This document shows, in pieces, positions 25,346 to 42,038 of a stretch of 64,000 nt of DNA. A program made the position numbers and the translations under genes. Location of the stretch: IMG/VR virus record IMGVR_UViG_3300033153_008400, positions 58,744 through 122,743 of that record, one strand, 5' to 3'. Below the pieces are notes generated by a model. It did no database searches, was not told the DNA's origin, and was given only the letters and a program-made list of their open reading frames with translations. The first letter of the stretch is position 1, and each line of letters begins with the position of its first letter. Source of the DNA: a virus.

Positions 25346-28300
25346 ATGGCATATCCAGTATATCAAAGTAATGGTGGAATAGGAACAGGAACAGCTTATG
25401 AAGTAGTTGTTGATTATCCTTCTACTGTAAATGCAGATGATATACTTATTGCTTGTATCATGGATGCTGATAATGATACGTTTGATACACCTTTCGGATG
25501 GACTAAAATATATGAAGATGGTACAGTTAATAACTGTTCAGTAGCTTTTTATTGGAAACGAGCTGACGGAACAGAAACAGGTTCAGTTACTTTTACGTCT
25601 TTACTTAATGCAGGTTCTTTAGTAGCGGGTATTATGTATCGTTATTCAGGTTGCATTAAAACTGGTGTTCCATTTGAAGAAAAAGCACAGTATGCTGTTA
25701 CACAAGCTACATCACAAGTTATTGGTTGGGGAGCTATGTTTCCTGCTAATGGTACAGATAGACTTGCAGTAGCTTTTAATATTGTTGAGGATAATACCAT
25801 ATCTGGGTTTTCAGGTACAGGATGGACAGAAGATAGCAGATTATCTACATCAGTAGGTGGTGATGCTCATTTTGCAGCCGCTTCTGAAGAATTTACTACT
25901 TATGGTAGTGTTGCTACATGGACTTCAGGAAATGAATATAATGGAGGTTTAGGATTATATCTACTTCCTGAACCTGAAATAGATGTTACTTTAAATACAG
26001 CAGATGCATATGATTTTGAAGAAGATACTACTCCTACATTAGAATTTACAGGTGATGCAGTAAGTAATGAAGATTTAGAATATGAAATACAAATTGATAC
26101 TGTTAATACTTTTAATTCAGATGAACGAAATGATGATGGTTATTCTGAAAGTAATTACGATACTGATGCTCCTATTGGCGATTTTACAACAAATAAAGGA
26201 ATAGCTCAAAGTTTTACAGCTCAATCAAGTTCTATCCTTAAATCATTAGATGTTTATCTTAAAAAGATAAGTGCTCCAACAGGAAATGCAGTAGCTAAAC
26301 TTTATTATCATGGAGGTAATTATGGTAGTATTACACTCTCAGCTCCAATAGGAGATGTATTAGCTATTTCTGATACCTTTGATGTCTCAACATTAACAAC
26401 ATCTTATGAAACTGTTACTTTTAATTTTCCTACTTTTTTTGAATTAGAAGAAGGAACTTATTATTTTATTTCTATTGAATATACTGGTGATAGTTCTAAT
26501 TATTTAGAAGCTAAAATAGATACATCTTCTCCAACTCATAGTGGAGTTATAGCTGCATTAAATAGTTCTAATGAATGGTATGGAACAGGTTTTGATTATG
26601 ATTTATGTTTTCAATTAAAAGTAAGTATTCCTTTAATCCAAGCATTATCAGAAGTACCAGATGCAGGGTTTTTGAATACAACAGATAATTGGGAAGCTAC
26701 TACATATTACTTCGATGGTTCAGATGCAGCAGCAGTAGATAGTGGTACAGATTGGGTTGATGTTACTAATTCTGATGATGGTTCTATTTCTACTTATGCT
26801 TATATACCATCAGGAACTTCTATTCTAAAAATAGAGGGAACTAATGCACCTGCAAGTGGTAATACCATTACTCTTGTAAGAACAAGAATATATTATGATG
26901 ATGATGATAATGATACTCCTCATTGGAGTTCTTATTATAATTTATCAATCCCTTCAGGTGGTTGGACATGGGCTAAAGTTCAAGCATTAGAATCTTCTTA
27001 TCTTGTAGGAGGAGGGATATGTACTTTTACTGTTGATACAAATGGAGATGCCGAAGAACTTTTATTTGAAACTTTCAGTTCTTATGATTTTAGAGTTTAC
27101 AAAGTAGAAATAGAAGTAATCACAGGAGATTGGCATCCATTTGATGACAATGAAAAGGTAAGTTATACGGTACAACCAATTGTTCCAAGTATTATAGAAA
27201 CATTTTATTTTGATGGTAGTGATTTACCAGCAGAAGACCAAGGTAGTGATTGGGTTAATGTTACTAATCTTGATGATGGTAGTATATCTACTTACATGTA
27301 CACTACTTCTTTACTTTCATCAGCTATATGGTGTGATGGTACAAATGCACCATCTTCAGGAAGTGCCATTGTAAAAGTACGAACAAGAATTTATGTAGAA
27401 AATGGACAAGGTAATCCTCTTTTATGGGATATTTGGGACGAAACTTCAACTGAATTATTAACTTATGAAGATTACCCTATTGATTTTTCTTTAGGATGGA
27501 CAGATTATGTGAATGTATTGGCTCCTATAGGTGGATGGACATGGGCTGGTGTACAAGGACTTTCATTAGCTATATCCTCAGGATCAGGAAGTGCAGGGCA
27601 AGTTGATGTCTATAAAATGGAAATAGAAGTTACTTCATTAGGTCCTTTACCTGCACCAACAGGAACAGATGTTTACTATTGGAGAGCAAGGGCTAAAAAC
27701 CCAACAGGAATTAATATTTGGGATGATTGGAGTTTCTTAGCTACTCCTATAACTACATATTATTTCGATGGGAGTGATGCAGGTGCAGTAGATACGGATG
27801 CTGTTTGGACAGACGAAACGAACACAGACGATGGTTCTACATCTACCTATGGTTATACCACAACATTAGGTTCAGAAACTACAAATGAAGTTATAATAGA
27901 AGGAACAAATGCTCCTGCAAGTGGAGCAGATATTTTTTCTGTTAGAGCAAGATATTATGCTAATTTTTCAGGGGGTGATGGTTGGTCTGATTATGTAGAA
28001 TTATCTATTCCTTCGGGCGGTTGGACATGGGCTAAACTACAAGCTCTTGAAGCTATTACTTATTATACACAACAAATTGGAGAATATGGAGCTTTATCTA
28101 TATACACAAATGGATTAGGAGAAAGATTACTTCAAGTAATAGCTCATAACGAAATTGCCACAACTCAATATAATCTTTATAAAATAGAACTTGAAGTAAC
28201 CCCTTACAAAACTTTTGAACTTACAGAAGCAACAGGTACTACTACGACTACCACAACAGTAGGAGGAGGAATTAATATAAAAGTAAACATAGGAGATGAT

Positions 28301-28402
28301 TGGAAAGAAGCAACAGCTATGAAAATAAACATAGGGGATGATTGGAAGGAAGTGATAACTGTAAAACAAAATATAGGAGGAATTTGGAAAACAGTTTTTT
28401 AA
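25346..28402 (+). CDS. Multidomain virion surface/receptor-binding protein (1018 aa)
   Basis: Beta-rich and acidic; FN3-like motifs (LEYEIQID, YYWRARA); three ~150-aa repeats; T7 linker; C-terminal K.NIG..WK triple repeat. Confidence 0.7.
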   Translation: MAYPVYQSNGGIGTGTAYEVVVDYPSTVNADDILIACIMDADNDTFDTPFGWTKIYEDGTVNNCSVAFYWKRADGTETGSVTFTSLLNAGSLVAGIMYRYSGCIKTGVPFEEKAQYAVTQATSQVIGWGAMFPANGTDRLAVAFNIVEDNTISGFSGTGWTEDSRLSTSVGGDAHFAAASEEFTTYGSVATWTSGNEYNGGLGLYLLPEPEIDVTLNTADAYDFEEDTTPTLEFTGDAVSNEDLEYEIQIDTVNTFNSDERNDDGYSESNYDTDAPIGDFTTNKGIAQSFTAQSSSILKSLDVYLKKISAPTGNAVAKLYYHGGNYGSITLSAPIGDVLAISDTFDVSTLTTSYETVTFNFPTFFELEEGTYYFISIEYTGDSSNYLEAKIDTSSPTHSGVIAALNSSNEWYGTGFDYDLCFQLKVSIPLIQALSEVPDAGFLNTTDNWEATTYYFDGSDAAAVDSGTDWVDVTNSDDGSISTYAYIPSGTSILKIEGTNAPASGNTITLVRTRIYYDDDDNDTPHWSSYYNLSIPSGGWTWAKVQALESSYLVGGGICTFTVDTNGDAEELLFETFSSYDFRVYKVEIEVITGDWHPFDDNEKVSYTVQPIVPSIIETFYFDGSDLPAEDQGSDWVNVTNLDDGSISTYMYTTSLLSSAIWCDGTNAPSSGSAIVKVRTRIYVENGQGNPLLWDIWDETSTELLTYEDYPIDFSLGWTDYVNVLAPIGGWTWAGVQGLSLAISSGSGSAGQVDVYKMEIEVTSLGPLPAPTGTDVYYWRARAKNPTGINIWDDWSFLATPITTYYFDGSDAGAVDTDAVWTDETNTDDGSTSTYGYTTTLGSETTNEVIIEGTNAPASGADIFSVRARYYANFSGGDGWSDYVELSIPSGGWTWAKLQALEAITYYTQQIGEYGALSIYTNGLGERLLQVIAHNEIATTQYNLYKIELEVTPYKTFELTEATGTTTTTTTVGGGINIKVNIGDDWKEATAMKINIGDDWKEVITVKQNIGGIWKTVF
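26699..28200 (+). repeat. Three dispersed ~150-aa domain repeats
   Basis: YFDGSD...W...TN.DDGS.STY...GTNAP.SG...GGWTWA..Q.L...YK.E.EV starting near 26700, 27200 and 27750. Confidence 0.9.
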
Positions 28403-28414: not shown

Positions 28415-28433
28415 TATTGTGAAACAAAAGGAA

Positions 28434-28712
28434 ATGATAATAGAAAAAGAAGTAAAACCTCTTATTGACTATTTGGTAGACAGACTTGTAAGTAGAAAAT
28501 TCATTGCTGCATGTGTAGCCACATGGTTAGTTTGGAATGATAAAATTGATGGTAATGCATGGACTATTTTTATGGCTTGGTATATTTCAACATTAGTGTT
28601 CTTAAAAATATTACCATTTTTTGCTAAAAAGCAAGAACGAAACTTTAAGCATTTTAGATTTAAAAAAGATGATAATGCTATTGATACAAAACACATACCA
28701 GAAAAGGATTAA
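28434..28712 (+). CDS. Putative holin
   Basis: SRKF followed by two hydrophobic segments and a basic C-terminus; lies upstream of the endolysin. Alternative GTG start at 28419. Confidence 0.55.
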   Translation: MIIEKEVKPLIDYLVDRLVSRKFIAACVATWLVWNDKIDGNAWTIFMAWYISTLVFLKILPFFAKKQERNFKHFRFKKDDNAIDTKHIPEKD

Positions 28713-28728
28713 CGAAATACTACACGCA

Positions 28729-28977
28729 ATGACACAGACATTAAACAAAGTTACGTTTGGACATCTTCTCACTATTTTAGCAATAATTCTAATACCATTA
28801 CTTGTTTGGGGAGTTTCAATAGAGAATAGATTTGAACAGGTAATTGACAATACAGAAGATATTAAAGATCTTGAAAAAGAAGATAAATCTTTAGAAGATA
28901 CTATAGATACAAATCATATTGAAATAATGAAAGTATTACTTGAAATTCAAATAGAACAAGCAAAAGCACATAAATAA
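28729..28977 (+). CDS. Small membrane-anchored coiled-coil protein (lysis accessory?)
   Basis: N-terminal transmembrane segment (LLTILAIILIPLLVWGV) then an acidic coiled coil. Confidence 0.5.
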   Translation: MTQTLNKVTFGHLLTILAIILIPLLVWGVSIENRFEQVIDNTEDIKDLEKEDKSLEDTIDTNHIEIMKVLLEIQIEQAKAHK

Positions 28978-29420
28978 TGGTACCTATAATTAAAATAGAA
29001 AGAATGTGGCAAAATGTTAATGAAACATTTGGAACTTGTACAGTTATAGGAAACGAGAACATGCCTTTATTTTCATCATTATGTGTTGAAAGAGGTTGGA
29101 GAAATAATAAAAAAAGTGTCAGTTGTATCCCTAAAGATTCTGGACCATATGAAGTTGTATGGGAATATTCTAATAAATTTAAAAGAATGTTATGGGAAAT
29201 TAAAGGAGTCCCTAATAGAAGTGAGACCAAGTTTCATGTTTCAAATTACTGGCACGATCTAAATGGTTGTATTTCCCTTGGGAGACGACCTAAGGATATT
29301 GATAAAGATGGTTATATGGATGTGACTTCATCTACTGATACTATTAATGATTTTCATAGAGCTTTGAAACATTTTGACAAAGCTATACTAGTAATAGTAG
29401 GTAAACAAAATATATCATAA
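28977..29420 (+). CDS. DUF5675-family putative endolysin (L,D-peptidase-like)
   Basis: TFG...ER.W.NN...SCIP...GVPNRS...FH..N...D..GCI.LG pattern with a His/Cys pair. Confidence 0.75.
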   Translation: MVPIIKIERMWQNVNETFGTCTVIGNENMPLFSSLCVERGWRNNKKSVSCIPKDSGPYEVVWEYSNKFKRMLWEIKGVPNRSETKFHVSNYWHDLNGCISLGRRPKDIDKDGYMDVTSSTDTINDFHRALKHFDKAILVIVGKQNIS

Positions 29421-29806
29421 TGATAGAAAATTTAAAAAAATACAAATGGGTATACACTGTTTTAGTTATTATAATTGGAGGTGCTACATGGATCTATACT
29501 CAAGGTGGAATTGATTACGATAAAGAAAGTAGATTATTTACTACTCCTGAAAAAAGAATTGAAACTGAAACTTATTTTGAACAACGACCTTCTCCAGTAC
29601 AAGAAATGCGACAACTTATTTTAGATAGTGTTGCAGCTAGAGAAGTGATTAAAAATTCTAAAGATGCTACACGTTCAAGAGCTAAACGAGATTCTTTATA
29701 TAAAGAAGAACGTAAAGCTAGGCAGATAACTGATTCTATAAATAAGTTAAATGCAGATCAGATGTATCAGATCAAGGAAGAACTCAAAAGAATTAAACAA
29801 GAATGA
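29420..29806 (+). CDS. Membrane-anchored coiled-coil protein (spanin-like/lysis accessory)
   Basis: N-terminal transmembrane segment and charged helical remainder; follows the endolysin. Confidence 0.5.
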   Translation: MIENLKKYKWVYTVLVIIIGGATWIYTQGGIDYDKESRLFTTPEKRIETETYFEQRPSPVQEMRQLILDSVAAREVIKNSKDATRSRAKRDSLYKEERKARQITDSINKLNADQMYQIKEELKRIKQE

Positions 29807-30366
29807 AAAATCTACTAATTATATTCATATCAGTATTTCTTATAGGATGTTTAGGTTCTAAAACAGTCAGTGAATCTACCATTAAAACAAAAGAAGTTGA
29901 TAAATCTGAAAAGGTAAAAGATTCTATTTCTACCAAAGATACCAATAAAGCAATTGATGATAAGATTGTTACACCAGTACCAAAAACTGGTAATGCTGAG
30001 ATGGATGCAAGATTTGATGCATTATTATCAGCTATGAATACATCTAAAACTTCAGGAGATAACTCTTATAAGCGTTATTATGACGAAAATACACGACAAC
30101 TCATAGAAGAATTTAAAATAGGTGAGACCACTTCTGAGAAGATTGATGTTAATGAGAGTGAAAAAGTTGAAAAAACCTTTGAAGAGCAACAAAATGAATA
30201 CTTTAAAAAGAAAATAACAACAATGCCCTGGTACCTATGGGTTGCATTATTTGTATTCTTATGGCCTACTATATGGAAGTTCTTGAAGCCAATTATACAA
30301 GTAGCTACAGGACCAGCTAATATAGTAACAGGAGTGACTAATCTTATAAAACCAAAAGATAAATAA
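29803..30366 (+). CDS. Lipoprotein with a C-terminal transmembrane segment (unimolecular-spanin-like)
   Basis: Lipobox FLIG|C and C-terminal PWYLWVALFVFLWP. Confidence 0.6.
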   Translation: MKNLLIIFISVFLIGCLGSKTVSESTIKTKEVDKSEKVKDSISTKDTNKAIDDKIVTPVPKTGNAEMDARFDALLSAMNTSKTSGDNSYKRYYDENTRQLIEEFKIGETTSEKIDVNESEKVEKTFEEQQNEYFKKKITTMPWYLWVALFVFLWPTIWKFLKPIIQVATGPANIVTGVTNLIKPKDK

Positions 30367-30373
30367 AATATTT

Positions 30374-30390
30374 TGTTACCTTTGGTAACA
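30374..30390 (+). promoter_or_regulatory. Bacteroidetes -7 promoter box inside a 7-bp inverted repeat
   Basis: TACCTTTG (30377-30384) lies within TGTTACC-TTT-GGTAACA, about 27 bp before the glycosyltransferase ATG. Confidence 0.65.
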
Positions 30391-30411
30391 CACACAATAA
30401 ATTAACTACAT

Positions 30412-31458
30412 ATGAAGAACGTAAAGTTTATTACTGCATGTCCTGATGATAACTATTATACATGGCAAGTCCATTTATGGTTAGAATCTTTGAAAGACTT
30501 AGATAAATCCAAAGATGCAATCGTTTTAATCTACAGACCATTGGTTAGGGAACCAAATACAAAATGGAAGAAAATTGAAGAGCTTTATCCTGAAGCAGAG
30601 TTCAATTATATTGTAGAACGTGTAGGAGAGAACATGAATACGTTGATCGGCATCTATATTCCAATTATAAGAACGTATAGTATGTGGCGTTACTTGAAAG
30701 AGAATCCCTCCCTGGGGTTAGATAATGTATTGTTCTTTTGTGATTCAGATATTTTGTTCACGAAAGATTTCAATATAGATAAATTTTTAGAAGAGGATGA
30801 TGATGTCAATTATGTATCAGATTCTGTAAGCTATATGGGAGCAGTATACTTTGACAACAAGATCAGTGAAGTACTTCCTGAGAAGAAAGAAGAATTCAAG
30901 ACTCGGGATGTTTTAGCAGAGTTGTTAAGTATCATAGGAGTTGAAAGAGAAGTTGCAGATAGAAATCAAGAACATAGTGGAGGAGTACAATATATTTTAA
31001 AGAATTCTACTCCTGATTTTTGGCAAAAGGTAATGAATGATGCTATTTTGATTAGGACGTATATGCAAAAGGTAAACAGAGAGTTTTTTCCTACTCAAGA
31101 TTTAGGATATCAAAGTTGGTGTGCTGATATGTGGTCAATTTTATGGAATTTATGGTTTGGTAACCTTGAAGTAAAAGTTGTTCCTGAATTAGATTTTAGT
31201 TGGGCATCTTGTAAGATAGACCAATTAGATAAGAAAACGATTTTTCATAATGCAGGAATTACAGGAGAGAGTATGCCACACGATGGAGGTGGAACTCATT
31301 TATGTTTTTATAAAGGAAAGTACCACAGAGGTTCTGACCCAACTAAAGATCCTGTATTAGATCAAATTATAAATAGTGAAGATTCTCAAAAATTTTGTAC
31401 TTGGTTTTATGCCAAGAAGGTAAAAGAAATTGGAGAAAAATATAAAATAGATTATTAA
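30412..31458 (+). CDS. GT-A glycosyltransferase resembling HPAT/SGT1 (GT95/GT96) peptidyl O-glycosyltransferases
   Basis: YYTWQ, YIPIIRTY..WRYL, FCDSDI (DxD), GGVQY, WCADMWS and IFH occur in the same order as HPAT/SGT1 motifs (Y..WQ, Y...NRP...WL, EPDH/DAD, W..EMY), recalled from memory. Confidence 0.7.
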   Translation: MKNVKFITACPDDNYYTWQVHLWLESLKDLDKSKDAIVLIYRPLVREPNTKWKKIEELYPEAEFNYIVERVGENMNTLIGIYIPIIRTYSMWRYLKENPSLGLDNVLFFCDSDILFTKDFNIDKFLEEDDDVNYVSDSVSYMGAVYFDNKISEVLPEKKEEFKTRDVLAELLSIIGVEREVADRNQEHSGGVQYILKNSTPDFWQKVMNDAILIRTYMQKVNREFFPTQDLGYQSWCADMWSILWNLWFGNLEVKVVPELDFSWASCKIDQLDKKTIFHNAGITGESMPHDGGGTHLCFYKGKYHRGSDPTKDPVLDQIINSEDSQKFCTWFYAKKVKEIGEKYKIDY

Positions 31459-31475
31459 CATTAAATACAATTATC

Positions 31476-31757
31476 ATGAAAAAAAGAGACCTCAAAGGGT
31501 ATGTCAGATTCGATGGATCAGGCCGAATTGTAGCAGGAAGTTTAGTACTAAGAAGAAAAATGCCTAAAGTGGGCAAGTGGCAAGAAGTCCCTTCTTATGA
31601 ATGTTGTAATACGACGACTACTACTACAGCAGCGCCTACTACGACAACGACTACTACGGCAGCTCCGACAACAACAACAACGACCACGGCAGCGCCTACG
31701 ACTACTACGACAACAACCGTAGCACCGACAACAACAACAACAACAACAGGAGCATAA
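31476..31757 (+). CDS. Small mucin-like protein: basic 45-aa head plus (T7AAP)n tail
   Basis: 34 Thr in five tracts separated by AAP/VAP; no signal peptide. Confidence 0.85.
   Translation: MKKRDLKGYVRFDGSGRIVAGSLVLRRKMPKVGKWQEVPSYECCNTTTTTTAAPTTTTTTTAAPTTTTTTTAAPTTTTTTTVAPTTTTTTTGA
31611..31748 (+). repeat. 30-bp-period repeat encoding T7-AAP
   Basis: All four Thr codons are interleaved while the 10-aa period is kept. Confidence 0.95.
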
Positions 31758-31761
31758 TAGT

Positions 31762-32172
31762 ATGAATAATATATTTCCAAAAGGCATGATTAAACAAGAA
31801 TTGACTTGTGAAATAATAGCCTCAAAATTATCGATTTTTTATGAGCAAATTCATTTGCTTCATTTACAGACTTCTTCTTATGCTGAGCATATGGCCTTAG
31901 GTGGTTTATATGAATATATAGGAGGATTTAAAGATGATACTTTGGAAAAAATTATGGGATACAAAAGTGTAAGACTCAAAGCATTTGATTTAGGAGGTAC
32001 TCTTAAAGAGTACTCTCCTGGATTAAGTATTGAGCTTGTACAGGAATTAAAGGATTTTGCATATGATTTACAATTATATGCAGGAGAATATAATATGCCT
32101 GATATTGAGAATACAGCACAGGAATTATCTGGTCAAGCAGCTAAAACATTGTATCTTTTAACTTTGAAATAA
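31762..32172 (+). CDS. Ferritin/Dps-like four-helix protein (DUF5856-like)
   Basis: HLLHLQT.SYAEH.AL..LYE...D...E...G and C-terminal YLLTL. Confidence 0.7.
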   Translation: MNNIFPKGMIKQELTCEIIASKLSIFYEQIHLLHLQTSSYAEHMALGGLYEYIGGFKDDTLEKIMGYKSVRLKAFDLGGTLKEYSPGLSIELVQELKDFAYDLQLYAGEYNMPDIENTAQELSGQAAKTLYLLTLK

Positions 32173-32454
32173 GTGGAAACTCTCAGGAAATTCTTTCCTT
32201 CGATATTATCTGAGAATGAAGCAACATATTTTGCTCAATTAGAAGGTATAGTTGGTTCTGTAGATGAACTTAGTTCTTTACAGATAACGCGAACTTCAGA
32301 TTCTTATGCTTTTAGGATAGCTCCAAGTCATCCTAAGTATAATAATTTGTTGATAGAAGAATTATTGAAGTATCATAATTTATTTAAAATTAGATTGGAT
32401 ATGTCTAAAAGCATAAAAACATCTGGTACTATTGTATTTAAAATAAGTTTATAA
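32173..32454 (+). CDS. Hypothetical protein
   Basis: Abuts the preceding stop codon; GTG start. Confidence 0.55.
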   Translation: METLRKFFPSILSENEATYFAQLEGIVGSVDELSSLQITRTSDSYAFRIAPSHPKYNNLLIEELLKYHNLFKIRLDMSKSIKTSGTIVFKISL

Positions 32455-32468
32455 CTAAAAAAGTTATT

Positions 32469-32506
32469 AAAAAAGAAAGAGCCTATCAGTTAGATGATAG
32501 GCCCTT
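32469..32506 (-). terminator. Intrinsic terminator on the minus strand
   Basis: Minus strand reads AAGGGCCTATCA-tctaac-TGATAGGCTCTT followed by TCTTTTTT. Confidence 0.7.
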
Positions 32507-32556
32507 ACATGGCAGAATTCATAAAGTACTAGTTTAATATTCGAGTTTATTCTCGC
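32469..32556 (-). ncRNA. Candidate ~85-nt small RNA
   Basis: Minus-strand TATGTTTG box (32568-32561), 5' hairpin CGAG-aataaa-CTCG, terminator, and no substantial ORF. Confidence 0.45.
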
Positions 32557-32616
32557 TTTACAAACATACAAAATTAATTCTAACTAAAAAAATTAGTAAT
32601 TTTATATATTTTTCAC

Positions 32617-32624
32617 TAAATTTG
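32617..32624 (+). promoter_or_regulatory. Bacteroidetes -7 promoter box
   Basis: TAAATTTG about 25 bp before the ATG at 32650; overlaps a short TCAC/GTGA inverted repeat. Confidence 0.6.
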
Positions 32625-32649
32625 TGAGTAACATTTAAAAACTACATTT

Positions 32650-32943
32650 ATGACAGCAGAAAAAGATAAAAAAGCACCTATCAAATTAAAAGCAAAACCA
32701 GTATATGATCCAGCTAAGAAATACACTTGGCCTAAGGATGCAATATTTGAATTAACAGGAGATCAATTTGGTCTTTGGTTAAATTCTGTAAGGAATAAAG
32801 TAACATCTAAAGAAGCTATGAATTATAGAATAGCTTTTGAAGCAAATAATGTTATTGAAGGTATAATGGCTAAAGGCGTTGAAGCTGGTGTCATTACAGA
32901 AATGGAACAATCTCAACAAAATGGCAAAGAAAACAACTCATAA
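32650..32943 (+). CDS. Hypothetical protein
   Basis: ORF with its own candidate promoter. Confidence 0.6.
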   Translation: MTAEKDKKAPIKLKAKPVYDPAKKYTWPKDAIFELTGDQFGLWLNSVRNKVTSKEAMNYRIAFEANNVIEGIMAKGVEAGVITEMEQSQQNGKENNS

Positions 32944-33040
32944 AAAAGCACCAAAGGTACATATTCAAAAAGGTCCTTCCCGTAATTATATGCGAGAGGC
33001 AGATCAAATGAAACCTTCTCAAAAGAGAAATAAAACATAA
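32921..33040 (+). CDS. Small basic peptide (39 aa, not in the ORF track)
   Basis: MAKKTTHKKAPKVHIQKGPSRNYMREADQMKPSQKRNKT; overlaps the upstream stop and ends just before the terminator. Confidence 0.5.
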   Translation: MAKKTTHKKAPKVHIQKGPSRNYMREADQMKPSQKRNKT

Positions 33041-33073
33041 TCATGCATACTTGGTACTCTGTGAAAGTAGAGG

Positions 33074-33101
33074 GGCCTCTTATTAATTTAAGAGGCCTTT
33101 T
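33074..33101. terminator. Terminator at the convergence of the two arms
   Basis: GGCCTCTTA-ttaatt-TAAGAGGCC followed by TTTT. Confidence 0.8.
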
Positions 33102-33106
33102 GTGTG

Positions 33107-33595
33107 TTATTTGATAACGATAAAGTTCTTTCCTGCACCTTTAAAGTATGTTATTCCTTTATTTAGTTTCTCAGATATACCCCGAGCTAATTCTATTTCA
33201 GGTCCTCTGTTTGTATCATCTACTATGATAGGTACAGATGTATCGAACAGGTGTATATTATATAAGAATCCTTCACGACCTATGTTCCCAGGAGGACCAT
33301 CTACCAGAATCATGTCATATTTTACACCTTTGAGTGCAGCTCTTATTGCTATTAACGAATACCATTTATAATTACGATAAGTTTGTATTGGAGCATATAT
33401 GTAATTAGAGTCTTCTACATGATTTAACCATCCTTTGTTATGTTCTATTGAATATACTTTCCACTTTTTGATTAATTCAGTTGTTCCTGTACCACTACCT
33501 AATTCCAATATGGTTTTACCTTCTTCTAAGTTATCAACAATCCATTTGTATAGTTCAGTGGATATTGCCCACCCATTTAAATTTTTTTCATTCAT
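33107..33595 (-). CDS. Class I SAM-dependent methyltransferase (sugar O-methyltransferase-like)
   Basis: ILELGSG.GT, DMILVDGP, IIVDD..R. Confidence 0.8.
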   Translation of the reverse strand: MNEKNLNGWAISTELYKWIVDNLEEGKTILELGSGTGTTELIKKWKVYSIEHNKGWLNHVEDSNYIYAPIQTYRNYKWYSLIAIRAALKGVKYDMILVDGPPGNIGREGFLYNIHLFDTSVPIIVDDTNRGPEIELARGISEKLNKGITYFKGAGKNFIVIK

Positions 33596-33601
33596 AATTG
33601 T

Positions 33602-34225
33602 TTATATGTGTTGGTTAAGGACTTTGAATTTTTCAATCCAACCAAATCCTTTTTTGTTATAATGTAAGTCACTGTGAAATGCATTTAAGCAAAATTCAGA
33701 AAAGTAAGTGTGTTTTATTTGTGATTTGAATGCTAATAATCGTGTTTTCTTTTCAACATAAAAATCATTAATTTCTACGGCTAAGTTAGGAACCCACATT
33801 GTATCAGCAGATGGAGTAAAGTATTCATATAAATTATACTTAGATACCCTAGAGAGCGAACGACCTAAATTACTAACTTTAACATGGAAGAAATGATTAT
33901 CTTCTCTACAGGGGATAAATATTGCATCATACTGTTGTAAATTATATTCTTTTTCTAATTTATAGACAGCTATGTCTTGTTTAAATTTATTAGGTTCTAG
34001 TCCTTCGATATAGATTATGTTTACATTTTCAACATCTTTCCAAAAAGCTATCACTTCTTCATACCTAGTCTTATTCTTAGTCAAATCTAAGTCACCTCCA
34101 AAGCTGAATACATAGATATCAAATACAGTAGATTTAAATTTTAAAATAGTTCCACTCATTGAGTATTCTATATCGTCTGGATGTGGACTCAGACACATAA
34201 CACGATCATTATTTAAGAATTTCAT
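33602..34225 (-). CDS. PIG-L/LmbE-family N-deacetylase
   Basis: LSPHPDD, R..E, D.H..H, K......FKSQ. Confidence 0.85.
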   Translation of the reverse strand: MKFLNNDRVMCLSPHPDDIEYSMSGTILKFKSTVFDIYVFSFGGDLDLTKNKTRYEEVIAFWKDVENVNIIYIEGLEPNKFKQDIAVYKLEKEYNLQQYDAIFIPCREDNHFFHVKVSNLGRSLSRVSKYNLYEYFTPSADTMWVPNLAVEINDFYVEKKTRLLAFKSQIKHTYFSEFCLNAFHSDLHYNKKGFGWIEKFKVLNQHI

Positions 34226-35082
34226 ATACTTGGCATTGATTTGAATAATTTTCCAGTATAAAATTTAATACCATTCCTACGTAAGAAATCACGTAAATCT
34301 TCTGTTATTGGGTTTTGTTCACCATATATCTTCATATCATTTAAATCATAAATGATTATTGATTCAGGTAATCCTAATTCTATTCTATTTTTAAGTGGAT
34401 TATATCCTAAAAATTTTACACCTTTAATTCCTTTTGCAGGGCATAAAACATCATACCATCTTTTTAAAATAGGAAGTAATAATTCTGCTCTTTCTTTAGG
34501 AAGCAATACTTTTTTAGGATACATGTTTTTCCTAATGACTTTACAAGGTACTCCTGCAGCCAATGATCCAGAGGGTATATCTTTAGTAATTATGCTACCA
34601 ATACCTATTACAGTATTATTACCAATGGTAGTATTAGGTAAGACAATACATCTGGCTGGTAACCATACATTATCTTCTATAGTAACAGGACCAAAATCAG
34701 CAGGAAATCCTTGTAGGATATCCAACCATGCTCCGTGTGTCCAGATCATGACACCGTCGCCTATACCAACATCATTCCCTATTTTAACAGGGCTATTTGG
34801 GTTTATTACGGTATTCTCAAAAATACCAACATGGTCTCCTATTTCAACAGTAGCCTCTGGATTCTTATGACCACCTCTACCAACTTCAACGTTCTTTCCC
34901 ATATATAAGTAATCACCTGCTGTAAATGTTTGACAATTTATTGTACAACCATCTTTGATAACACAACAATCTCCTAGTCTGAATGTACCTTTGACATTAA
35001 TCTTAACATTATTTCCTATTACGCAGTTTTTACCATAAAGGATTTTATCTGCATTTATCATTGCGTTTTTATGTATGCTCAT
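34222..35082 (-). CDS. Left-handed beta-helix sugar O/N-acyltransferase
   Basis: Hexapeptide repeats, IWTH, VTIEDNVW, TKDIP...AGVP.KVI. Confidence 0.9.
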   Translation of the reverse strand: MSIHKNAMINADKILYGKNCVIGNNVKINVKGTFRLGDCCVIKDGCTINCQTFTAGDYLYMGKNVEVGRGGHKNPEATVEIGDHVGIFENTVINPNSPVKIGNDVGIGDGVMIWTHGAWLDILQGFPADFGPVTIEDNVWLPARCIVLPNTTIGNNTVIGIGSIITKDIPSGSLAAGVPCKVIRKNMYPKKVLLPKERAELLLPILKRWYDVLCPAKGIKGVKFLGYNPLKNRIELGLPESIIIYDLNDMKIYGEQNPITEDLRDFLRRNGIKFYTGKLFKSMPSI

Positions 35083-35881
35083 TTGATTGATTTTTATTAT
35101 AAGTTATTATTTCTTCTTGTATATCATCTACATATTGACAAGTATTGAACCAATGACTACCCGTTCTTTTTCTTAGATTAATATATTTTTTACTTAGATG
35201 TTCAGTAAGTGAATTTTCTATATCATTCAGTGGTATTACCTTAGTTAAGAATTTAGTACAATATGCTTCAGTCATAGCAGTACATTTGATATTGTAGCCA
35301 TTAACTAATTTAGGAATAGCATTGAATCCCTCTTCAATTAATAATTTAAGTTGCTCCTGGGAGATGATCAAAGATGACTGATGTAGATTCTTGGGTTCCA
35401 TAAAGTCTTCCCCATTTATTGTTACTATCTTGCCTAGACCTCTGTAAGATGCGTGGAAGGCTGGTAGTAATTTCCTGCCTTTGTCTTCCTCATAGGTGAG
35501 GTTTCCAATAATGTAACCATCTAGTTTATTTTCGCCATAGCTATATTTGACAAACTGTTTAAAATTCTTTTCATTGAAAGCTATATCGTCTTCTAAATGT
35601 ATGAATATATCATAGTCATTGACTTTAGATAGCATATCTGCTCTATATAACCATATAAATTCGGGTTCTGGTTGCCAGCCATTGGCCCACACGGAATTAC
35701 TGAAGACCTTGGGCTTGATTATGACGCTGACGACGAGTTCAGTGTCCAAATTGAGTGCTTCTGTAGTATAAATGATGACATCTAAGTCTAAATCAAAGGA
35801 TTTTAAGTTATTTAATATTTTATTTACATGTCTAACTTTCTTATTGCCTTCATAATTTGTTATATATACTAATCCTTTCAT
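35069..35881 (-). CDS. Putative GT-A glycosyltransferase
   Basis: YDIFIHLEDDI and C-terminal EHL; lies in the glycan gene cluster. Confidence 0.6.
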   Translation of the reverse strand: MKGLVYITNYEGNKKVRHVNKILNNLKSFDLDLDVIIYTTEALNLDTELVVSVIIKPKVFSNSVWANGWQPEPEFIWLYRADMLSKVNDYDIFIHLEDDIAFNEKNFKQFVKYSYGENKLDGYIIGNLTYEEDKGRKLLPAFHASYRGLGKIVTINGEDFMEPKNLHQSSLIISQEQLKLLIEEGFNAIPKLVNGYNIKCTAMTEAYCTKFLTKVIPLNDIENSLTEHLSKKYINLRKRTGSHWFNTCQYVDDIQEEIITYNKNQSNEHT

Positions 35882-36420
35882 TTTTTTACTAATATGGTTA
35901 GACCATTATTATTTGTGAATCTTTCTTTAATACTCCATTCAGGATTATCTTCCATAAATTCTTCAATAGCTGGCCATAGTCCTAATCTGGAAAGTCCATC
36001 ATATGATTCACCTATATAAGCATATGTAGTAGTATCATGAAAAATAAGATATTTACTTACTTTTGGAGCATGTAGTTTAAGTTCTACAGATAGTTGATCA
36101 TAATTATGAAGAGTATCAATAAACAATAATTCAGTAGGGTCTATCTCTATTTCTAAGGTATTACCTATTATAAATTGAAAATTTGTATAATTTTCTTCTA
36201 AAGCTTGTTTTTGAAGAGGTTTCCAATCACAATTTCTTATATCATATGATATTAATGTATAAGGATGTCCAGCCAGTAAAGCATATGTAGAAACAATTCC
36301 TCTAACTCCCATTTCTGTTACATGTCTACATTTTTTAGCATATCTTTTCAGAATAGGTAAGTGTTCGTTTATGTCTGAGGGTTTATCCCACAGTTCTTGA
36401 TATTTATTTTCTATGTTCAT
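35878..36420 (-). CDS. SAM-dependent methyltransferase (Methyltransf_24-like)
   Basis: VTEMGVR.G.ST, LFIDTLH.Y, IFHDT. Confidence 0.85.
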   Translation of the reverse strand: MNIENKYQELWDKPSDINEHLPILKRYAKKCRHVTEMGVRGIVSTYALLAGHPYTLISYDIRNCDWKPLQKQALEENYTNFQFIIGNTLEIEIDPTELLFIDTLHNYDQLSVELKLHAPKVSKYLIFHDTTTYAYIGESYDGLSRLGLWPAIEEFMEDNPEWSIKERFTNNNGLTILVKK

Positions 36421-37180
36421 TACAATAATCTTTAAGTTGTTGTTGATAATCTATATCCCAGTGAGGATTTAGTACAATGTTACCTGTAGGAATGTTTCCT
36501 TTAACACGTTCACTTTCTATGTGCTCAGAATTCCTTACTACAATATTAGGTCTTGTATCGTTGTCTTTGCCTAAGCCTGATTGATGATAGGACCTATTTG
36601 CCCAGTAATAGAACCAACTTACTTCATCATCTGGAGGGAATGCTCGAACAACTTTTTCATCACCCAGAGCTCTGATGGATACAACCAATACCATGTCTCC
36701 ACCTGCATTCATGAGTGGACTCTTTCCGATGGCTTCCCATGCCCCTTTGGAGTACACTATACCTGAATTACCTATAGTCATTATCTTAGATATTTTCTTA
36801 TTGTTATAAGCTACTCCTCGGTTCCAATGTAATAAGTTAGTGTCCTTCTTCCAATACTTAACTACATTCTGTAAGTGGTTAGGCATAGCTATGTCATCAT
36901 CATCCCACACAGCTATTAGCGGCCCTTTACAGAGTTCTATAGCATAGTTCTCTTTCTCACCTATCAGTGGAAAGGTATCATCAAGGTTATATATCTTTAC
37001 TTGAGGATGACTAAATTTTAATTTTTGTAGTGGATAGTCATTTACAATGATGAGTTCACACTTATCAGCAGGATAGTCCTGGATAAGAAAACTATGGAGA
37101 GCCTCTTCTAATGTAGGGACTCTGCCGTGCGTGATGCACTTGCATGAAATCATAGGATATTCTTTATCTTTATCATACAT
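36404..37180 (-). CDS. Family 2-like glycosyltransferase
   Basis: S...T.GR...L..AL.SF..QDY, ELIIVND, WDDDD. Confidence 0.85.
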   Translation of the reverse strand: MYDKDKEYPMISCKCITHGRVPTLEEALHSFLIQDYPADKCELIIVNDYPLQKLKFSHPQVKIYNLDDTFPLIGEKENYAIELCKGPLIAVWDDDDIAMPNHLQNVVKYWKKDTNLLHWNRGVAYNNKKISKIMTIGNSGIVYSKGAWEAIGKSPLMNAGGDMVLVVSIRALGDEKVVRAFPPDDEVSWFYYWANRSYHQSGLGKDNDTRPNIVVRNSEHIESERVKGNIPTGNIVLNPHWDIDYQQQLKDYCNEHRK

Positions 37181-37907
37181 ATTTGTAACTTGTTTTATTT
37201 TTAATATTTCTTCTATTAGTTAATTGATCACGTAATGTACTAGGATTCATACCTAAGTATTCAGCTAATTCTTTTGCAGAATCAAAAATTCTTCCTGTTT
37301 CTGTATTAATTACTTCTTTACCTGAAGATTTTGACATTTTAACTTTAGCTTCTTCAGAAAATTTACCACCTTTATTCCAAGGAGTATATCCTTTTTGAAA
37401 AGGACTAGACTTTTTAATACTTTCAATGTGTTTTTTAGATTTTGGCTTACCTTTGGATGCTAATGACATTTTACGTCTAGTTTCAGCAGATTGAGGAGGT
37501 CTAATCTTAACTTTAGCAGCTATTTTAGCTCTTTGAGATTTAGTCCACTTTCTACCAATATTTTTAGCACCACATTTCTTTTTAGTAGTTTTAGAGAACC
37601 CTTTTCCTCCATCTCCTCCTGCTGTATGATTTACAAGGATACCTGTATTGATATCTTGTCTACCATAAAATGCTATTAATTCTATTTCTTTAGCAAGTGC
37701 TTGTTTGGCTGTTACATTATCTAAAACTATCTCTACTTCAACTCCAAATTTATCGGCATAATTAAACCAAAATTTACTTCTACTTCTTCTTCCTTTCCAA
37801 TGACTAGAATTTGCTCTTTGATAATTATCAAAAGATCGCAACCCTCCTACTCCTATGTAGAAAGGTTGCTTATTATCTTTTCTAATATGTTTATAAACAT
37901 ATGCCAC
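37173..37907 (-). mobile_element. Free-standing GIY-YIG-like homing endonuclease with NUMOD3 repeats and a C-terminal HTH
   Basis: YVY.H...PFYIG.G, E..LI...G, L.N.T.GGDG, SAETRRKMS, PWNKG, IFDS..ELA..L. Confidence 0.8.
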
Positions 37908-38170
37908 TATTCTACTAACTCATAAGTTAATTCAAAAATATCAGGTTTACACGGATAGTGTTCTCCACTTATACCTTTTATAATCCAATCTTTAGGATCA
38001 GCTTTCATATCACCTTCTAAAGTGTGTATTACAATTCCTCCATCTCTGGATTGTTCCCAGTCTCTATTCATTTCATTTAGAAATTCAACTAATTCATCAG
38101 ATGCTTCTTCTTCACTTCCTGGAAGTTGAAAAGCTTCTATTATTACGGGTTTCTTTCTATACTTTCCCAT
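37907..38170 (-). CDS. Conserved phage protein (KYRKKPV family)
   Basis: KYRKKPV.IEA.Q...I.TLEG.M....DWIIKG..GE.YPCKPDIF..TYE. Confidence 0.75.
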   Translation of the reverse strand: MGKYRKKPVIIEAFQLPGSEEEASDELVEFLNEMNRDWEQSRDGGIVIHTLEGDMKADPKDWIIKGISGEHYPCKPDIFELTYELVE

Positions 38171-38171
38171 A

Positions 38172-38480
38172 TTACCAGATATGTACAATTTCAAATGGGT
38201 TTATCATCATCACGGACAGATCTTTAGTAAGATTCACCAGATCACCTCGTATGATACCTTCTTTTCCTACCATGACCTCATCACCTATCTTAATATCATC
38301 TGTAAGAACACCTGTTCCTATATCATAGACAACACCTCTTTCTAATTTTTTTGCGGCTTCGGCAACTAGTTCTTTTTTAGCACTGTCTGCCATCTGAATA
38401 GAATACGTTGGTAATTCCATTTTAATATAAATTCTATTTCCTAATAATGTTTTATAAGGTTTTTCTTGTTCTTTACTCAT
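38172..38480 (-). CDS. groES: GroES-like co-chaperonin
   Basis: LGNRI.I, G.V..IG.G, IKIGD.V; about 100 aa. Confidence 0.65.
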   Translation of the reverse strand: MSKEQEKPYKTLLGNRIYIKMELPTYSIQMADSAKKELVAEAAKKLERGVVYDIGTGVLTDDIKIGDEVMVGKEGIIRGDLVNLTKDLSVMMINPFEIVHIW

Positions 38481-38859
38481 TATTTAAATATTTAGTTATT
38501 AATTTTTCTCGTTCTTTATTAATGTACTCATATCGGTACATATCATTCTCAACGTTAGCATGTTCGTCTACTGTCAAAAGTATGATATTTTCTTCAATAT
38601 ATGCTAATTTAGGATACTTGGACTTAGGTAGAATATGATGAAAATATACACTTAATGGTTCTTTACCTAAAGGTATTCCAGAAACTTCAGACCTATGGGC
38701 ACGATTTAACCAGATTTCATGGAAAAATACATGCATTGTCATAGCATTATCAAATTGCTTTAAAGCTTTAGGACCTGTTACTCTCATTTGTTTACGTGGT
38801 TTATGCTGAAAACAATAATTGCTCTCAGCATTTTTACCACAAACTTTACATTTCTTCAT
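38473..38859 (-). CDS. HNH-type nuclease
   Basis: FHHILPKS.YP.L....NI.LL...EH; N-terminal Cys/His motif. Confidence 0.7.
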   Translation of the reverse strand: MKKCKVCGKNAESNYCFQHKPRKQMRVTGPKALKQFDNAMTMHVFFHEIWLNRAHRSEVSGIPLGKEPLSVYFHHILPKSKYPKLAYIEENIILLTVDEHANVENDMYRYEYINKEREKLITKYLNNE

Positions 38860-39094
38860 TTCTATTTATTCCTATTGTTTCTAATGCATGTTCTTTAAGC
38901 ACATTATGTAAGTGATTACATTGTGTACAAGTTTCATTACCACAATGACTAAACCCTTCTCGTATTCCATCTGTTTTACATCCTCTCCAGAATTTTACTT
39001 GTCTGTCAGATACTTTTGAAGATGTTAGGTCATCAAGAACTTCTTCTATAATGAACTTTAATTCTTTTCTCGATTTAGAATATTCGCCTTTCAT
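38846..39094 (-). CDS. Hypothetical protein
   Basis: Overlapping ORF in the operon; Cys cluster. Confidence 0.5.
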   Translation of the reverse strand: MKGEYSKSRKELKFIIEEVLDDLTSSKVSDRQVKFWRGCKTDGIREGFSHCGNETCTQCNHLHNVLKEHALETIGINRNEEM

Positions 39095-40107
39095 GATATT
39101 GTCTCCTCAGGGGAATTGATTTCCTTAAGTATCATATCTACATGATACTTATAGAAATCTTTATCGTTAATAATCTTTTCTTTAAATTCAGTAATATTAT
39201 GCTTTACACCATTTACTGTAATTACCTCTAAGCGAGTTCTAGCTAGTCCATATTGTTTTAAAAGCTCAATGATCTCTCCTATTTTATCAATACCTACTCC
39301 ATAAATAATCTCGAAACTGGCTAATTTAAATGGAGGTGCCATTTTATTTTTAGTTACTTTGATCTTGGTAATATTACCATAGACCTGTTCACCTTCTTTA
39401 GCAAGTTTTTTACTTACTTCAATTCTACAATCAGTATAATATTTTAGAGCATGTCCACCTTGAGTAACAGTAGGATTTCCAAACATAAGACCTATTTTTT
39501 CTCTATATTGAGAAATTGAGATAACACATACATTGTGCTTTGCTAAGGCTGTTTTAAGTTTAGGGTATGCACTACTATTCAATTTGGCTTTGTGTCCAAT
39601 GGCGCTATCTCCTATGTCCCCATCGACTGTCTTTTTGGGCATAAGAGATGAGTCAGTGTCTATAATAATTAAATCTATCTCATCTGATTTGATCATTTCA
39701 AGTGCTATATTAAATCCTTCTTCTCCAGACGATGGTTGAGAAAGTAACATAGTTTCTGTATTTACTCCTAATTGTCCGAAGTATTTTTTATCTACGGCGT
39801 GCTCACCATCAATATATAATACTTTATCTCCCTGCCTTTGACATTCAGCAGTAATATGTCCACAAATAGTAGATTTTCCTGTTCCTTCCCATCCCATGAG
39901 TTCATAGAGTTTACCTTTAGCAACTCCTCCAATTCCTAGTGCTATATAATCAAAAGCAATGGATCCAGTACTATATACCTCTAAATCAGAACGGGGTTTT
40001 GATTCTAAGGTTAGTATAGTACCTTTTCCATATTTGCCTTCGAGCTTCGCCATTGCCTTTTGAAGTTCTGTTAACTTAGTAGCAGACTTAGTTTCCTTAC
40101 TCTTCAT
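39091..40107 (-). CDS. recA: RecA/UvsX recombinase
   Basis: STGS..FD.ALG.GG, G.EGTGKST, YIDGEH, QYREKIG.MFGNP....GG.ALKYY, KNKMAPPF. Confidence 0.97.
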   Translation of the reverse strand: MKSKETKSATKLTELQKAMAKLEGKYGKGTILTLESKPRSDLEVYSTGSIAFDYIALGIGGVAKGKLYELMGWEGTGKSTICGHITAECQRQGDKVLYIDGEHAVDKKYFGQLGVNTETMLLSQPSSGEEGFNIALEMIKSDEIDLIIIDTDSSLMPKKTVDGDIGDSAIGHKAKLNSSAYPKLKTALAKHNVCVISISQYREKIGLMFGNPTVTQGGHALKYYTDCRIEVSKKLAKEGEQVYGNITKIKVTKNKMAPPFKLASFEIIYGVGIDKIGEIIELLKQYGLARTRLEVITVNGVKHNITEFKEKIINDKDFYKYHVDMILKEINSPEETIS

Positions 40108-42037: not shown

Positions 42038-42038
42038 A

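Follow-up and report, generated by a model that had tools for sequence, protein, structure and literature searches.

A GT8-like enzyme and poly-threonine tracts on phage virion-block proteins: a candidate virion O-glycosylation system

Introduction

Mycobacteriophages glycosylate their own virions: an enzyme encoded by the phage adds glycans to its structural proteins, in the C-terminal regions of capsid and tail-tube subunits, and this glycosylation was reported to shield the particles from immune recognition (PMC12619734). Here we analyse a 64,000-nucleotide stretch of viral DNA (hereafter the window; positions 58,744 to 122,743 of IMG/VR record IMGVR_UViG_3300033153_008400). The window is the right-hand end of a single viral contig of 122,743 bp with 32.6% G+C. 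It carries a gene for a 348-residue glycosyltransferase, followed closely by a gene for a 93-residue protein with a poly-threonine tail. Judged by genes and predicted structure alone, these genes probably belong to a system for the cytoplasmic O-glycosylation of poly-threonine tags on virion proteins.

Virion glycosylation of mycobacteriophages is reportedly the subject of a study by Freeman et al. (Cell Host Microbe, 2023). As far as we found, glycosylation of the virion by phage-encoded enzymes has so far been shown only in that group. Our literature search, whose coverage stopped short of subscription journals and supplements, found no description of the enzyme family studied here or of a poly-threonine tag on phage proteins. 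The locus resembles the mycobacteriophage system in joining a phage enzyme to acceptor extensions on the phage's own structural proteins, here by gene content alone, and the C-terminal glycan sites of that system match the position of the poly-threonine tails that we find in Firmicutes phages. The enzyme family is a different one, none of the 77 records matched by tblastn at E<=1e-5 being from a Mycobacterium phage, and the hosts differ too, the carriers here being Bacteroidota-type and Firmicutes phages. The putative acceptor is also unlike the mycobacterial one, being a stereotyped poly-threonine decapeptide tag that occurs in addition as long stalks in fibre-like proteins.

Three further systems invite comparison. 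GlyE, of the streptococcal serine-rich-repeat adhesins, is likewise a soluble enzyme of GT8 fold (GT, glycosyltransferase; structure entry 5gvv), and it acts in the cytoplasm on the long hydroxy-amino-acid repeats of a surface-displayed protein. That system is bacterial, with a GT-B initiating enzyme, dedicated export, serine-rich repeats and adhesins as products, whereas the phage system would be phage-encoded and threonine-only, its proteins leaving the cell by lysis. A64R of the chlorovirus PBCV-1 is a viral GT-A domain that, according to its entry title (2p6w), adds sugars in the cytoplasm to the capsid protein of the virus itself; PBCV-1, however, is a eukaryotic giant virus without a poly-threonine tag, and its structural match to our enzyme is weaker than those of the GT8 enzymes. 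The glycans of PBCV-1 are N-linked and atypical. The plant HPAT enzymes, which would resemble the phage enzyme in sugaring directly the hydroxyls of extended peptides rich in proline, threonine and serine, are considered in the Discussion.

Results

A glycosyltransferase gene precedes a small threonine-rich gene

The pair consists of the following elements.

30412..31458, plus strand: glycosyltransferase of phrog_4417, 348 residues, predicted soluble with a GT8-like fold (profile match, predicted structure)
31476..31610, plus strand: head module, residues 1-45 of the 93-residue protein, a small basic beta domain ending YECCN (alignment, predicted structure)
31611..31757, plus strand: poly-threonine tail, residues 46-93 plus stop, five T6-7 tracts with AAP/VAP spacers; putative O-glycan acceptor

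A check of the open reading frames (ORFs) found both genes as the original prediction had described them: an ORF of 348 residues with an ATG start, a gap of 17 bp between the end of its stop codon (31458) and the next ATG (31476), and an ORF of 93 residues (31476..31757). The enzyme carries YYTWQ at residues 15-19, the YIPIIR..W.YL motif as YIPIIRTYSMWRYL at residues 82-95, the DSD of CDSDILF at residues 111-113 and WCADMW at residues 236-241. The head of the small protein is basic (6 K, 5 R and 4 D/E, counted by hand), and its tail reads T6-AAP-T7-AAP-T7-AAP-T7-VAP-T7-GA, with 34 threonines in its five tracts. Reading the sequences by eye, we saw no hydrophobic signal-like stretch at the N-terminus of either protein.

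The enzyme belongs to an unnamed phage family with a predicted GT8-like fold

The enzyme matches phrog_4417, a family of unknown function, over its full length (E 2.5e-48; residues 5-340 against profile positions 2-291 of 293). It matched no Pfam family at E<=1 and no NCBIfam family, and searching PDB chains by sequence, with the single protein or with a 102-sequence profile, gave noise only (E 0.04-1.6, unrelated chains). Its relatives, 1188 proteins at E<=0.001 in a word-indexed search and 692 cluster representatives in an exhaustive one, include none with a functional name. In two alignments, one of 102 diverse homologues and one of 66, residues Y82, D111, D113, Y141, Q234, H279 and K301 are invariant, as is F262 in the larger alignment only.

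The AlphaFold2 model built on the 102-sequence alignment reached a predicted local distance difference test score (pLDDT) of 97.6 and a predicted template modelling score of 0.94. It shows a single Rossmann-like alpha/beta/alpha domain in which D111-S-D113 directly follows the strand of residues 105-110. Foldseek returned 172 PDB chains at E<=0.001, and the top rows listed were all GT-A enzymes, among them glycogenin, the catalytic domain of UGGT, alpha-1,3-galactosyltransferase and Ktr4 (E ~3e-6 and above). VIA-align, which is independent of Foldseek, placed LgtC first (1g9r, Z 14.3, root-mean-square deviation 3.7, 235 residues aligned), followed by glycogenin (3u2t, Z 14.1), the UGGT catalytic domain (6fsn, Z 13.7), the Skp1 alpha-galactosyltransferase (6mw8, Z 13.7) and WbbM (Z 13.2), with weaker matches to GlyE (Z 11.8) and PBCV-1 A64R (Z 11.1). 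In a library of viral structures the only close models were an uncultured phage protein (E 2.4e-28) and Orf49 of Lactobacillus phage LP65 (E 1.9e-13).

LgtC, glycogenin and UGGT thus match the full-length model best in structure, and the phage family appears to share with them the DxD and conserved His, Gln and Lys residues. They differ in showing 7-12% identity in the structural alignments, in lacking about 90 residues that the phage enzyme has in addition, and in their acceptors, which are lipopolysaccharide (LPS), tyrosine or glucan, and N-glycans. The best Z scores fall on GT8 and GT24 enzymes and D111, D113, H279, Q234 and K301 are invariant; DxD plus His, with Gln and Lys, is the GT8 set for binding metal and diphosphate, to which these residues may correspond. 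By sequence, no Pfam GT8 model was among the families matched by the 102 or the 66 members. Longer members of the family are fused to further glycosyltransferase domains (GT29, GT6, GT2, GT7C), which fits glycan-building enzymes. The claim that the 348-residue protein is a DxD glycosyltransferase holds, given the invariant DxD and a confident model of GT-A fold, and the model indicates a soluble, GT8-like enzyme of the retaining type from an unnamed phage family.

Poly-threonine tracts recur throughout the virion block

Two ORFs of the window contain such threonine runs, those of the 93-residue protein and of a 1018-residue fibre-like protein. A scan of all ORFs of the genome found runs of at least six threonines in ten, plus one marginal case, all on the plus strand and in the virion block. 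Most of the nine besides the 93-residue protein are encoded 40-57 kb upstream of the enzyme gene. The other carriers are listed here.

25346..28402, plus strand: fibre-like protein, 1018 residues, one T7 tract (run scan of window and genome)
Virion block, plus strand: 393-residue protein, C-terminus ..VAPTTTTTTTGA / ..VAPSTTTTTTVAPTTTTTTTGA, with the same ending as the 93-residue protein
Virion block, plus strand: 196-residue protein, phrog_31752 'virion structural protein', beginning with T8
Virion block, plus strand: 280-, 81- and 105-residue proteins with a common second N-terminal module and T-tract ends
Virion block, plus strand: 1350-residue protein that combines the second N-terminal module with DUF5122 propeller repeats, leucine-rich repeats (LRRs), 21 T7 tracts in tandem and one additional tract
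Virion block, plus strand: 1877-residue protein with ten tracts

In the fibre-like protein the T7 lies at residues 965-971, between a repeat-rich body and a C-terminal domain. The 393-residue protein had no PHROG, Pfam or tblastn match in phages. Tracts are separated by [V/I/A][A/S]P (VAP 14, IAP 5 and AAP 4 times) with a period of 10 residues. They lie far beyond chance, and the tag is a genome-wide feature of the virion block, not the property of one small gene.

Within the tracts all four threonine codons are used (ACT 123, ACA 126, ACG 75, ACC 24), which points to selection on the protein and not to a DNA repeat. We considered whether the tracts might be an (ACN)n repeat artefact at the DNA level; the mixed codons, together with conservation of the head at the protein level, led us to reject this. 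ACG is enriched inside the tracts (75/348, vs 19/452 in the rest of the same genes).

The second N-terminal module spans about 70 residues (..AAG.D.GPF.LYSD.D..V.PFE...AGY..) and occurs in four paralogues at genome positions 35522-36364, 37507-37752, 37762-41814 and 41831-42148. By sequence, these appear to form a second family of dock plus poly-threonine stalk in the same phage, two of them with large C-terminal parts.

Enzyme and tags co-vary across unrelated phages

When 50,697 phage records were searched by tblastn (E<=1e-5), the enzyme family turned up in 77 (~0.15%), all below 60% identity to the query and at 23-30% in the 30 rows listed. By name the records belong to phages of Lactobacillus (23), Enterococcus (21), Staphylococcus (11), Lactococcus (8), Clostridium (3), Lacticaseibacillus (2), Levilactobacillus (1), Arcanobacterium (1) and Chryseobacterium (1), with six called simply 'Bacteriophage'. 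We read the neighbouring genes in eleven cultured enzyme-bearing phages sampled from different lineages. All eleven have threonine-rich tails or tracts on capsid, tail-tube or small structural proteins (runs of at least five T or S in ten), and in 9/11 the enzyme gene has a tagged gene as its immediate upstream neighbour. In siphophages the enzyme gene sits inside the head-tail morphogenesis operon, right after the tagged gene.

phiFL1A: capsid and tail-tube proteins both end in T runs; tail-tube gene directly upstream of the enzyme gene
Semele: 116-residue 'major tail protein' containing four copies of TTTTTSTTTVKP, encoded immediately before the enzyme
R3.3: T-run ends on a 305-residue upstream protein and on the tail-tube homologue
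phiCTP1: gp18 tagged
PT94: 109-residue protein with T14
CHPC836: capsid and tail protein tagged
1706: capsid/protease and 'major structural protein' orf13 tagged
iLp84: capsid, a 125-residue protein with five tracts, and tail protein tagged
MA9V-3 (Chryseobacterium): internal T/S tracts in two proteins upstream of the enzyme gene
SAC12B: TTVKP/TTVAP repeats (TTVxP) in place of pure runs
Planchet: only the tail-tube protein tagged, ending TTTSTT

Related structural proteins also occur in phages that lack the enzyme. The phiFL1A tail-tube protein has 76 relatives in the phage collection, including 42 Streptococcus, 14 Bacillus and 2 Pediococcus records, and phages of these three genera gave no enzyme match in the tblastn search of phage records. 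Six such phages served as controls: Javan47, Javan505, Javan377, phiJL-1, cIP1 (20.7 of 38 kb read) and 049ML001. In these six, tblastn at E<=10 gave only noise for the enzyme; a threonine tail was found on none of six tail-tube proteins and none of five capsid proteins, and the single ORF with 'TTTTS' encodes an unrelated protein of 71 residues. Control orthologues end where the tails of phiFL1A and R3.3 start (..PGETTGDY.NI..). The contrast is seen even inside one genus, Coetzeevirus, where R3.3 has enzyme and tails while phiJL-1 and cIP1 have neither.

The reverse test started from the tag. A DNA-level scan of IMG/VR for T7-[V/A]-A-P-T7 gave at least 119 stretches, 80 of them listed; 37 of the 80 listed loci lie on contigs of at least 30 kb, and 36 whole records were profile-searched, one (L153) being left out. 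The enzyme family was present in 19/36 (18 at E<=1e-92 and one weakly, at 3.8e-4), and the fraction was 8/9 among records at least 70% complete and 3/4 among those at least 90% complete. At least four of the positives belong to the first set of relatives described below; a more distant group, with E of ~1e-92 to 1e-100, includes a complete 33-kb genome. Compared with the 0.15% of cultured-phage records, the enrichment is very large, and the number of independent lineages behind it is modest. Altogether, the presence and absence of the enzyme are coupled to those of the threonine tags across unrelated phages.

The head module stays with the enzyme and carries diverse domains

Related loci came from IMG/VR (80 loci on contigs of up to ~120 kb, with enzymes 53-61% identical). 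The pairing was counted in the 74 with at least 1300 nt downstream; six shorter ones were left out, and the head is still present in two of these. In 73/74 loci the enzyme gene is followed on its own strand, at a distance of at most 1300 nt, by a head homologue, and in 63/74 that distance is at most 60 nt; often there are two or three tandem paralogues. Within this clade the predicted co-occurrence of enzyme and head gene is thereby borne out.

Across 37 head sequences, L6, V10, R11, D13, G14, G16, R17, S22, L23, P30, G33, E37, E42, C43 and C44 are invariant, and the number of T tracts ranges from 1 to 5, the window copy having the most. The head is predicted to fold as a small beta unit (strands 7-13, 24-26 and 35-38; pLDDT ~86-88 over residues 11-40), and the tail of the 93-residue protein has no secondary structure in the prediction. 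In related loci the head is also the N-terminus of proteins of 130-660 residues, where it is followed by a short T tract and then by diverse C-terminal domains; some of these proteins have very short T tracts or none.

Searching databases for longer proteins found 84, of 164-380 residues, with the head at the N-terminus. Precomputed Pfam domains were available on 28/84: PF11999 (10), PF07603 (11), PF13306 (3), PF13884 (1), PF03382 (1), PF09603 (1) and LRR models (1). These accessions correspond to ice-binding-like (PF11999), Lcl_C/DUF1566 (PF07603), BspA-type LRR (PF13306), tail-fibre chaperone (PF13884), DUF285 (PF03382) and Fibrobacter major domain (PF09603). One source annotates its protein as 'Leucine-rich repeat (LRR) protein'. 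Phage fibres and decoration proteins are usually built in this way, from an N-terminal module that is conserved and a C-terminus that varies and binds ligands, and because the head family matches this design the head would, by analogy, be a virion-docking module. The 93-residue protein would then be the minimal member, dock plus stalk, of a family built from head, T linker and variable C-terminal domain.

Two further families of small T-tailed proteins adjoin the enzyme gene in relatives, and the window genome has neither at this position. Members of one start MAIPSRQIGW..LLWQISKQLE.. and lie upstream of the enzyme gene (loci L001, L010, L013, L019, L025 and others); those of the other start MRRC.(D/E)(I/V)YEIVTVYYPT(S/G)C.. 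(L002, L006-L008, L012, L016, L039).

Discussion

Under the scheme that we favour, the soluble enzyme would, late in infection and in the cytoplasm, take an NDP-sugar (nucleoside diphosphate sugar) and a divalent metal, the latter through DxD and His, and move the sugar onto threonine hydroxyls of T6-8-[V/I/A][A/S]P tags that repeat with a decapeptide period. Its substrates would be newly made virion proteins, before or during assembly. The tags would serve as C-terminal tails in the 393-, 280-, 81-, 105- and 93-residue proteins, and as stalks that join a docking module to a distal binding domain in the 1350-, 1877- and 1018-residue proteins. The 93-residue protein would be the smallest carrier, its head docking on the particle and the rest consisting of five tags. 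The virion surface and the fibres would thereby acquire a mucin-like brush of glycans, and further enzymes may extend or tailor the glycan, such as the domains fused to longer family members or the products of nearby GT2, acetyltransferase-, deacetylase- and methyltransferase-like genes. We infer, in this scheme, the threonine acceptor, the donor and the identity of the sugar, the timing, the virion location of the tagged proteins, the docking of the head and the biological role. Docking on the virion and the roles named in the original prediction, namely shielding, adhesion and baiting, may apply.

A broader proposal, which we put forward tentatively as quite possible, is that T7-x-x-P is a portable O-glycosylation tag that can be encoded genetically and is read by one soluble enzyme family across phages of Bacteroidota and Firmicutes. 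It would be placed on capsid, tail-tube and fibre proteins and on dedicated brush proteins such as the 93-residue one, and form mucin-like stalks of bottle-brush shape whose length can be tuned (here from 1 to 22 tracts in a protein), making this a second virion-glycosylation system, much more widespread than the mycobacteriophage one.

Several observations weigh against glycosylation of the tags. Within the genome, the 517-residue major capsid protein (phrog_11589) has no tract, and only the 196-residue tagged protein has a family-level virion annotation. Stretches of poly-threonine and proline can be plain linkers, and the likeness of the enzyme to the GT8 fold leaves the acceptor unspecified. 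In Planchet, the capsid protein encoded next to the enzyme gene has no tail. One record of the reverse test, G022 (the record of locus L147; 192,497 bp, CheckV 100%), has a T7-xAP-T7 tract and no family member at E<=0.001, so that either another enzyme serves the tag there or the tag is unmodified. One related locus, L031, has the flank and lacks the head gene. Finally, many related loci and several T-tract records form one clade, so that their counts are not independent, and the independent support comes from a handful of lineages; the pairing in related loci is for this reason conserved synteny and not repeated independent association.

The original prediction likened the enzyme to the plant and algal peptidyl O-glycosyltransferases HPAT (GT95) and SGT1 (GT96), and true, if distant, membership of that lineage, with action on peptide hydroxyls, is possible and in our view doubtful. 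The ordered motifs that it named are present in the enzyme. The HPAT family PF23452 is matched at E 1.3e-4 by one family member (1/102 in one alignment and 1/66 in the other), and two look-alike viral clusters in the ESM Atlas bear PF23452 on 10% and 40% of their members. The match is confined to that single homologue in each set, however, and the window protein itself has none to PF23452 at E<=1 (curated cut-off 23.9 bits). A PF23452 search of the phage's own genome gave no candidate, but the controls of that search were equally silent. The closest solved structures are of GT8, GT24 and GT6 type, in a PDB comparison that had no HPAT or SGT1 structure in it. HPATs are Golgi membrane proteins acting on hydroxyproline. 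The sequence link is thus a faint lead to a distant relationship and not membership, and the likeness as originally claimed is not supported here.

That claim went together with a dedicated enzyme-substrate pair, in which the 93-residue protein is the main substrate, is made into a glycan brush and uses its head to attach to the virion. The 17-bp spacing, the adjacency in most related loci, a 93-residue protein that is almost pure tag, and relatives with small T-tailed genes on both sides of the enzyme gene all speak for such a pair. Against it, nine other proteins of the genome carry the same tract, the head in relatives bears real C-terminal domains with T tracts that are sometimes very short or absent, and the tagged neighbours in Firmicutes phages are capsid and tail-tube proteins instead. 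We therefore consider an exclusive pair unlikely. What survives of the original prediction is threonine O-glycosylation of virion components, where the comparative evidence favours protein over DNA or LPS modification; as a single pair it was drawn too narrowly, the same T6-8-[VIA][AS]P tract being present in ten virion-block proteins.

The tracts could instead be unmodified linkers, flexible or stiff, with the enzyme acting on a host envelope polysaccharide, a lipid or a host protein and its adjacency being a coincidence of modular virion clusters. The LPS and polysaccharide enzymes LgtC and WbbM are among the nearest solved folds, and GT2, acetyltransferase-like and deacetylase-like genes lie nearby on the other strand. 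Such a coincidence sits poorly with the joint gain and loss of enzyme and tags, both in close relatives and across phages infecting Bacteroidota and Firmicutes, with the siphophage gene placed in the head-tail operon directly after the tagged gene, and with the enzyme in 8/9 near-complete T-tract records against ~0.15% of phage records; moreover, no membrane segment is discernible by eye in the enzyme. We judge this explanation improbable.

Glycosylation of hypermodified bases of the phage DNA is barely credible: phage glycosyltransferases are often DNA-modifying (PMC12619734), and a DNA methyltransferase gene and replication genes lie in the window, but the enzyme gene lies on the virion (late) strand and inside structural operons in other phages, it co-varies with protein tags, and no hydroxymethylase or other base-modification gene stands beside it, a weak point resting on a scan of the neighbours.

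If virion O-glycosylation is confirmed, the phenomenon would reach abundant aquatic phages of Bacteroidota type as well as dairy, gut and staphylococcal phages of practical importance (Lactococcus, Lactobacillus, Enterococcus, Staphylococcus). It would bear on phage stability, on adhesion to mucus or polysaccharide matrices, on antibody recognition in phage therapy and on the reading of cryo-electron microscopy maps, and a soluble enzyme of 348 residues with a 10-residue tag would be a minimal pair for cytoplasmic glyco-engineering. Since cultured phages carry both the enzyme and the tags, the question is directly testable. New from this window are the genome-wide inventory of tags, the recognition of the 'mucin-like protein' as a minimal docking-head member, and the adjoining strain-specific island of possible sugar-tailoring genes described below.

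Other features of the locus

Signals around the pair were examined by hairpin, motif and promoter scans, and by reading the upstream stretches of 67 distinct related loci.

30374..30390, no strand assigned: hairpin TGTTACC-TTT-GGTAACA, 7-pair stem, directly after the stop of the upstream gene (hairpin scan)
30404..30411, plus strand: leader AACTACAT abutting the enzyme start codon (67 distinct loci, by eye)
33070..33101, no strand assigned: strong two-way terminator-like hairpin where plus and minus blocks converge (13-pair stem on plus, 9-pair stem on minus)

The dedicated -7 box claimed for the pair, TACCTTTG (TAnnTTTG) at 30377-30384, lies within the first hairpin and is unsupported. The motif is not enriched in the window (92 occurrences vs 90.5 +/- 8.3 expected), and it precedes the homologous gene in just 4 of the 67 loci, which equals the background of 444/7948 80-nt stretches (5.6%). 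A sigma-70 scan of 29700-33200 gave 14 promoter-like sites, fewer than in shuffles (17.3). The leader is conserved before the homologous gene in most related loci in the form AAACCAACTACAT, the window version reading TTAACTACAT. It stands directly before four gene starts (window 30404-30411 and 32640-32647; genome 28368-28376 and ~31380-31390) and is not enriched window-wide (8 matches vs 4.35 expected); it may be a signal for translation or for late transcription.

The terminase, portal and 517-residue major capsid protein are encoded at genome 23.6-31.3 kb. On the question of whether the phage is crAss-like, TerL, portal and capsid match phrog_6681, phrog_6547 and phrog_11589, and the nearest cultured relatives of the capsid by tblastn are Leptolyngbya phage Lbo-JY46 (27%) and the Flavobacterium FpV4 group (22%), none of them labelled crAss-like. 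The FpV group has been counted as crAss-like.

The neighbouring genes downstream of the pair include the following.

31762..32943, plus strand: three small genes that stay with the pair, a DUF5856/phrog_858-like gene of 136 residues, then genes of 93 and 97 residues
33107..37180, minus strand: convergent block of six genes, possibly sugar-tailoring (library scans)
33107-33595, minus strand: methyltransferase-like gene, weak match
33602-34225, minus strand: PIG-L/LmbE-type deacetylase-like gene, below the cut-off
34222-35082, minus strand: hexapeptide sugar O-acetyltransferase-like gene
36404-37180, minus strand: GT2 glycosyltransferase, convergent and 5 kb downstream (Pfam 43.7 bits vs a cut-off of 23.3)

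The three small genes are kept in 65, 69 and 58 of the 80 related loci, respectively. The first of them (31762-32172, plus strand), which adjoins the gene of the 93-residue tagged protein, carries the PHROG label 'starvation-inducible transcriptional regulator' and is Dps-like.

Upstream, directly before the enzyme gene, 28419-30366 (plus strand) resembles a lysis cassette by sequence reading and Pfam. It encodes a 97-residue hydrophobic protein, a 147-residue DUF5675 protein (E 2.9e-22), a 128-residue protein with an N-terminal hydrophobic stretch, and a 187-residue protein that resembles a one-piece spanin, being lipoprotein-like at its N-terminus (..LIGC) and hydrophobic in a C-terminal segment. 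These genes occur in the flanks of 0-3 of the 80 relatives. Farther upstream, a single ORF of 6405 residues (2075-21292, plus strand), without a Pfam match at E<=0.001 in the two pieces scanned, is very large for a phage gene.

The convergent block also contains two genes without a recognised family. In the 4-kb flanks of the 80 relatives the GT2 gene recurs in 9/80 and the other five genes in 0/80, so that these five look like a strain-specific island. The stretch 33107-37180 may be a strain-specific island for glycan tailoring; a link to the putative tag-glycosylation system is conjecture. Adjoining the GT2 gene is a homing-endonuclease-like gene (37173-37907, minus strand) that matches phrog_314 (E 3.9e-22) and has a NUMOD3 motif.

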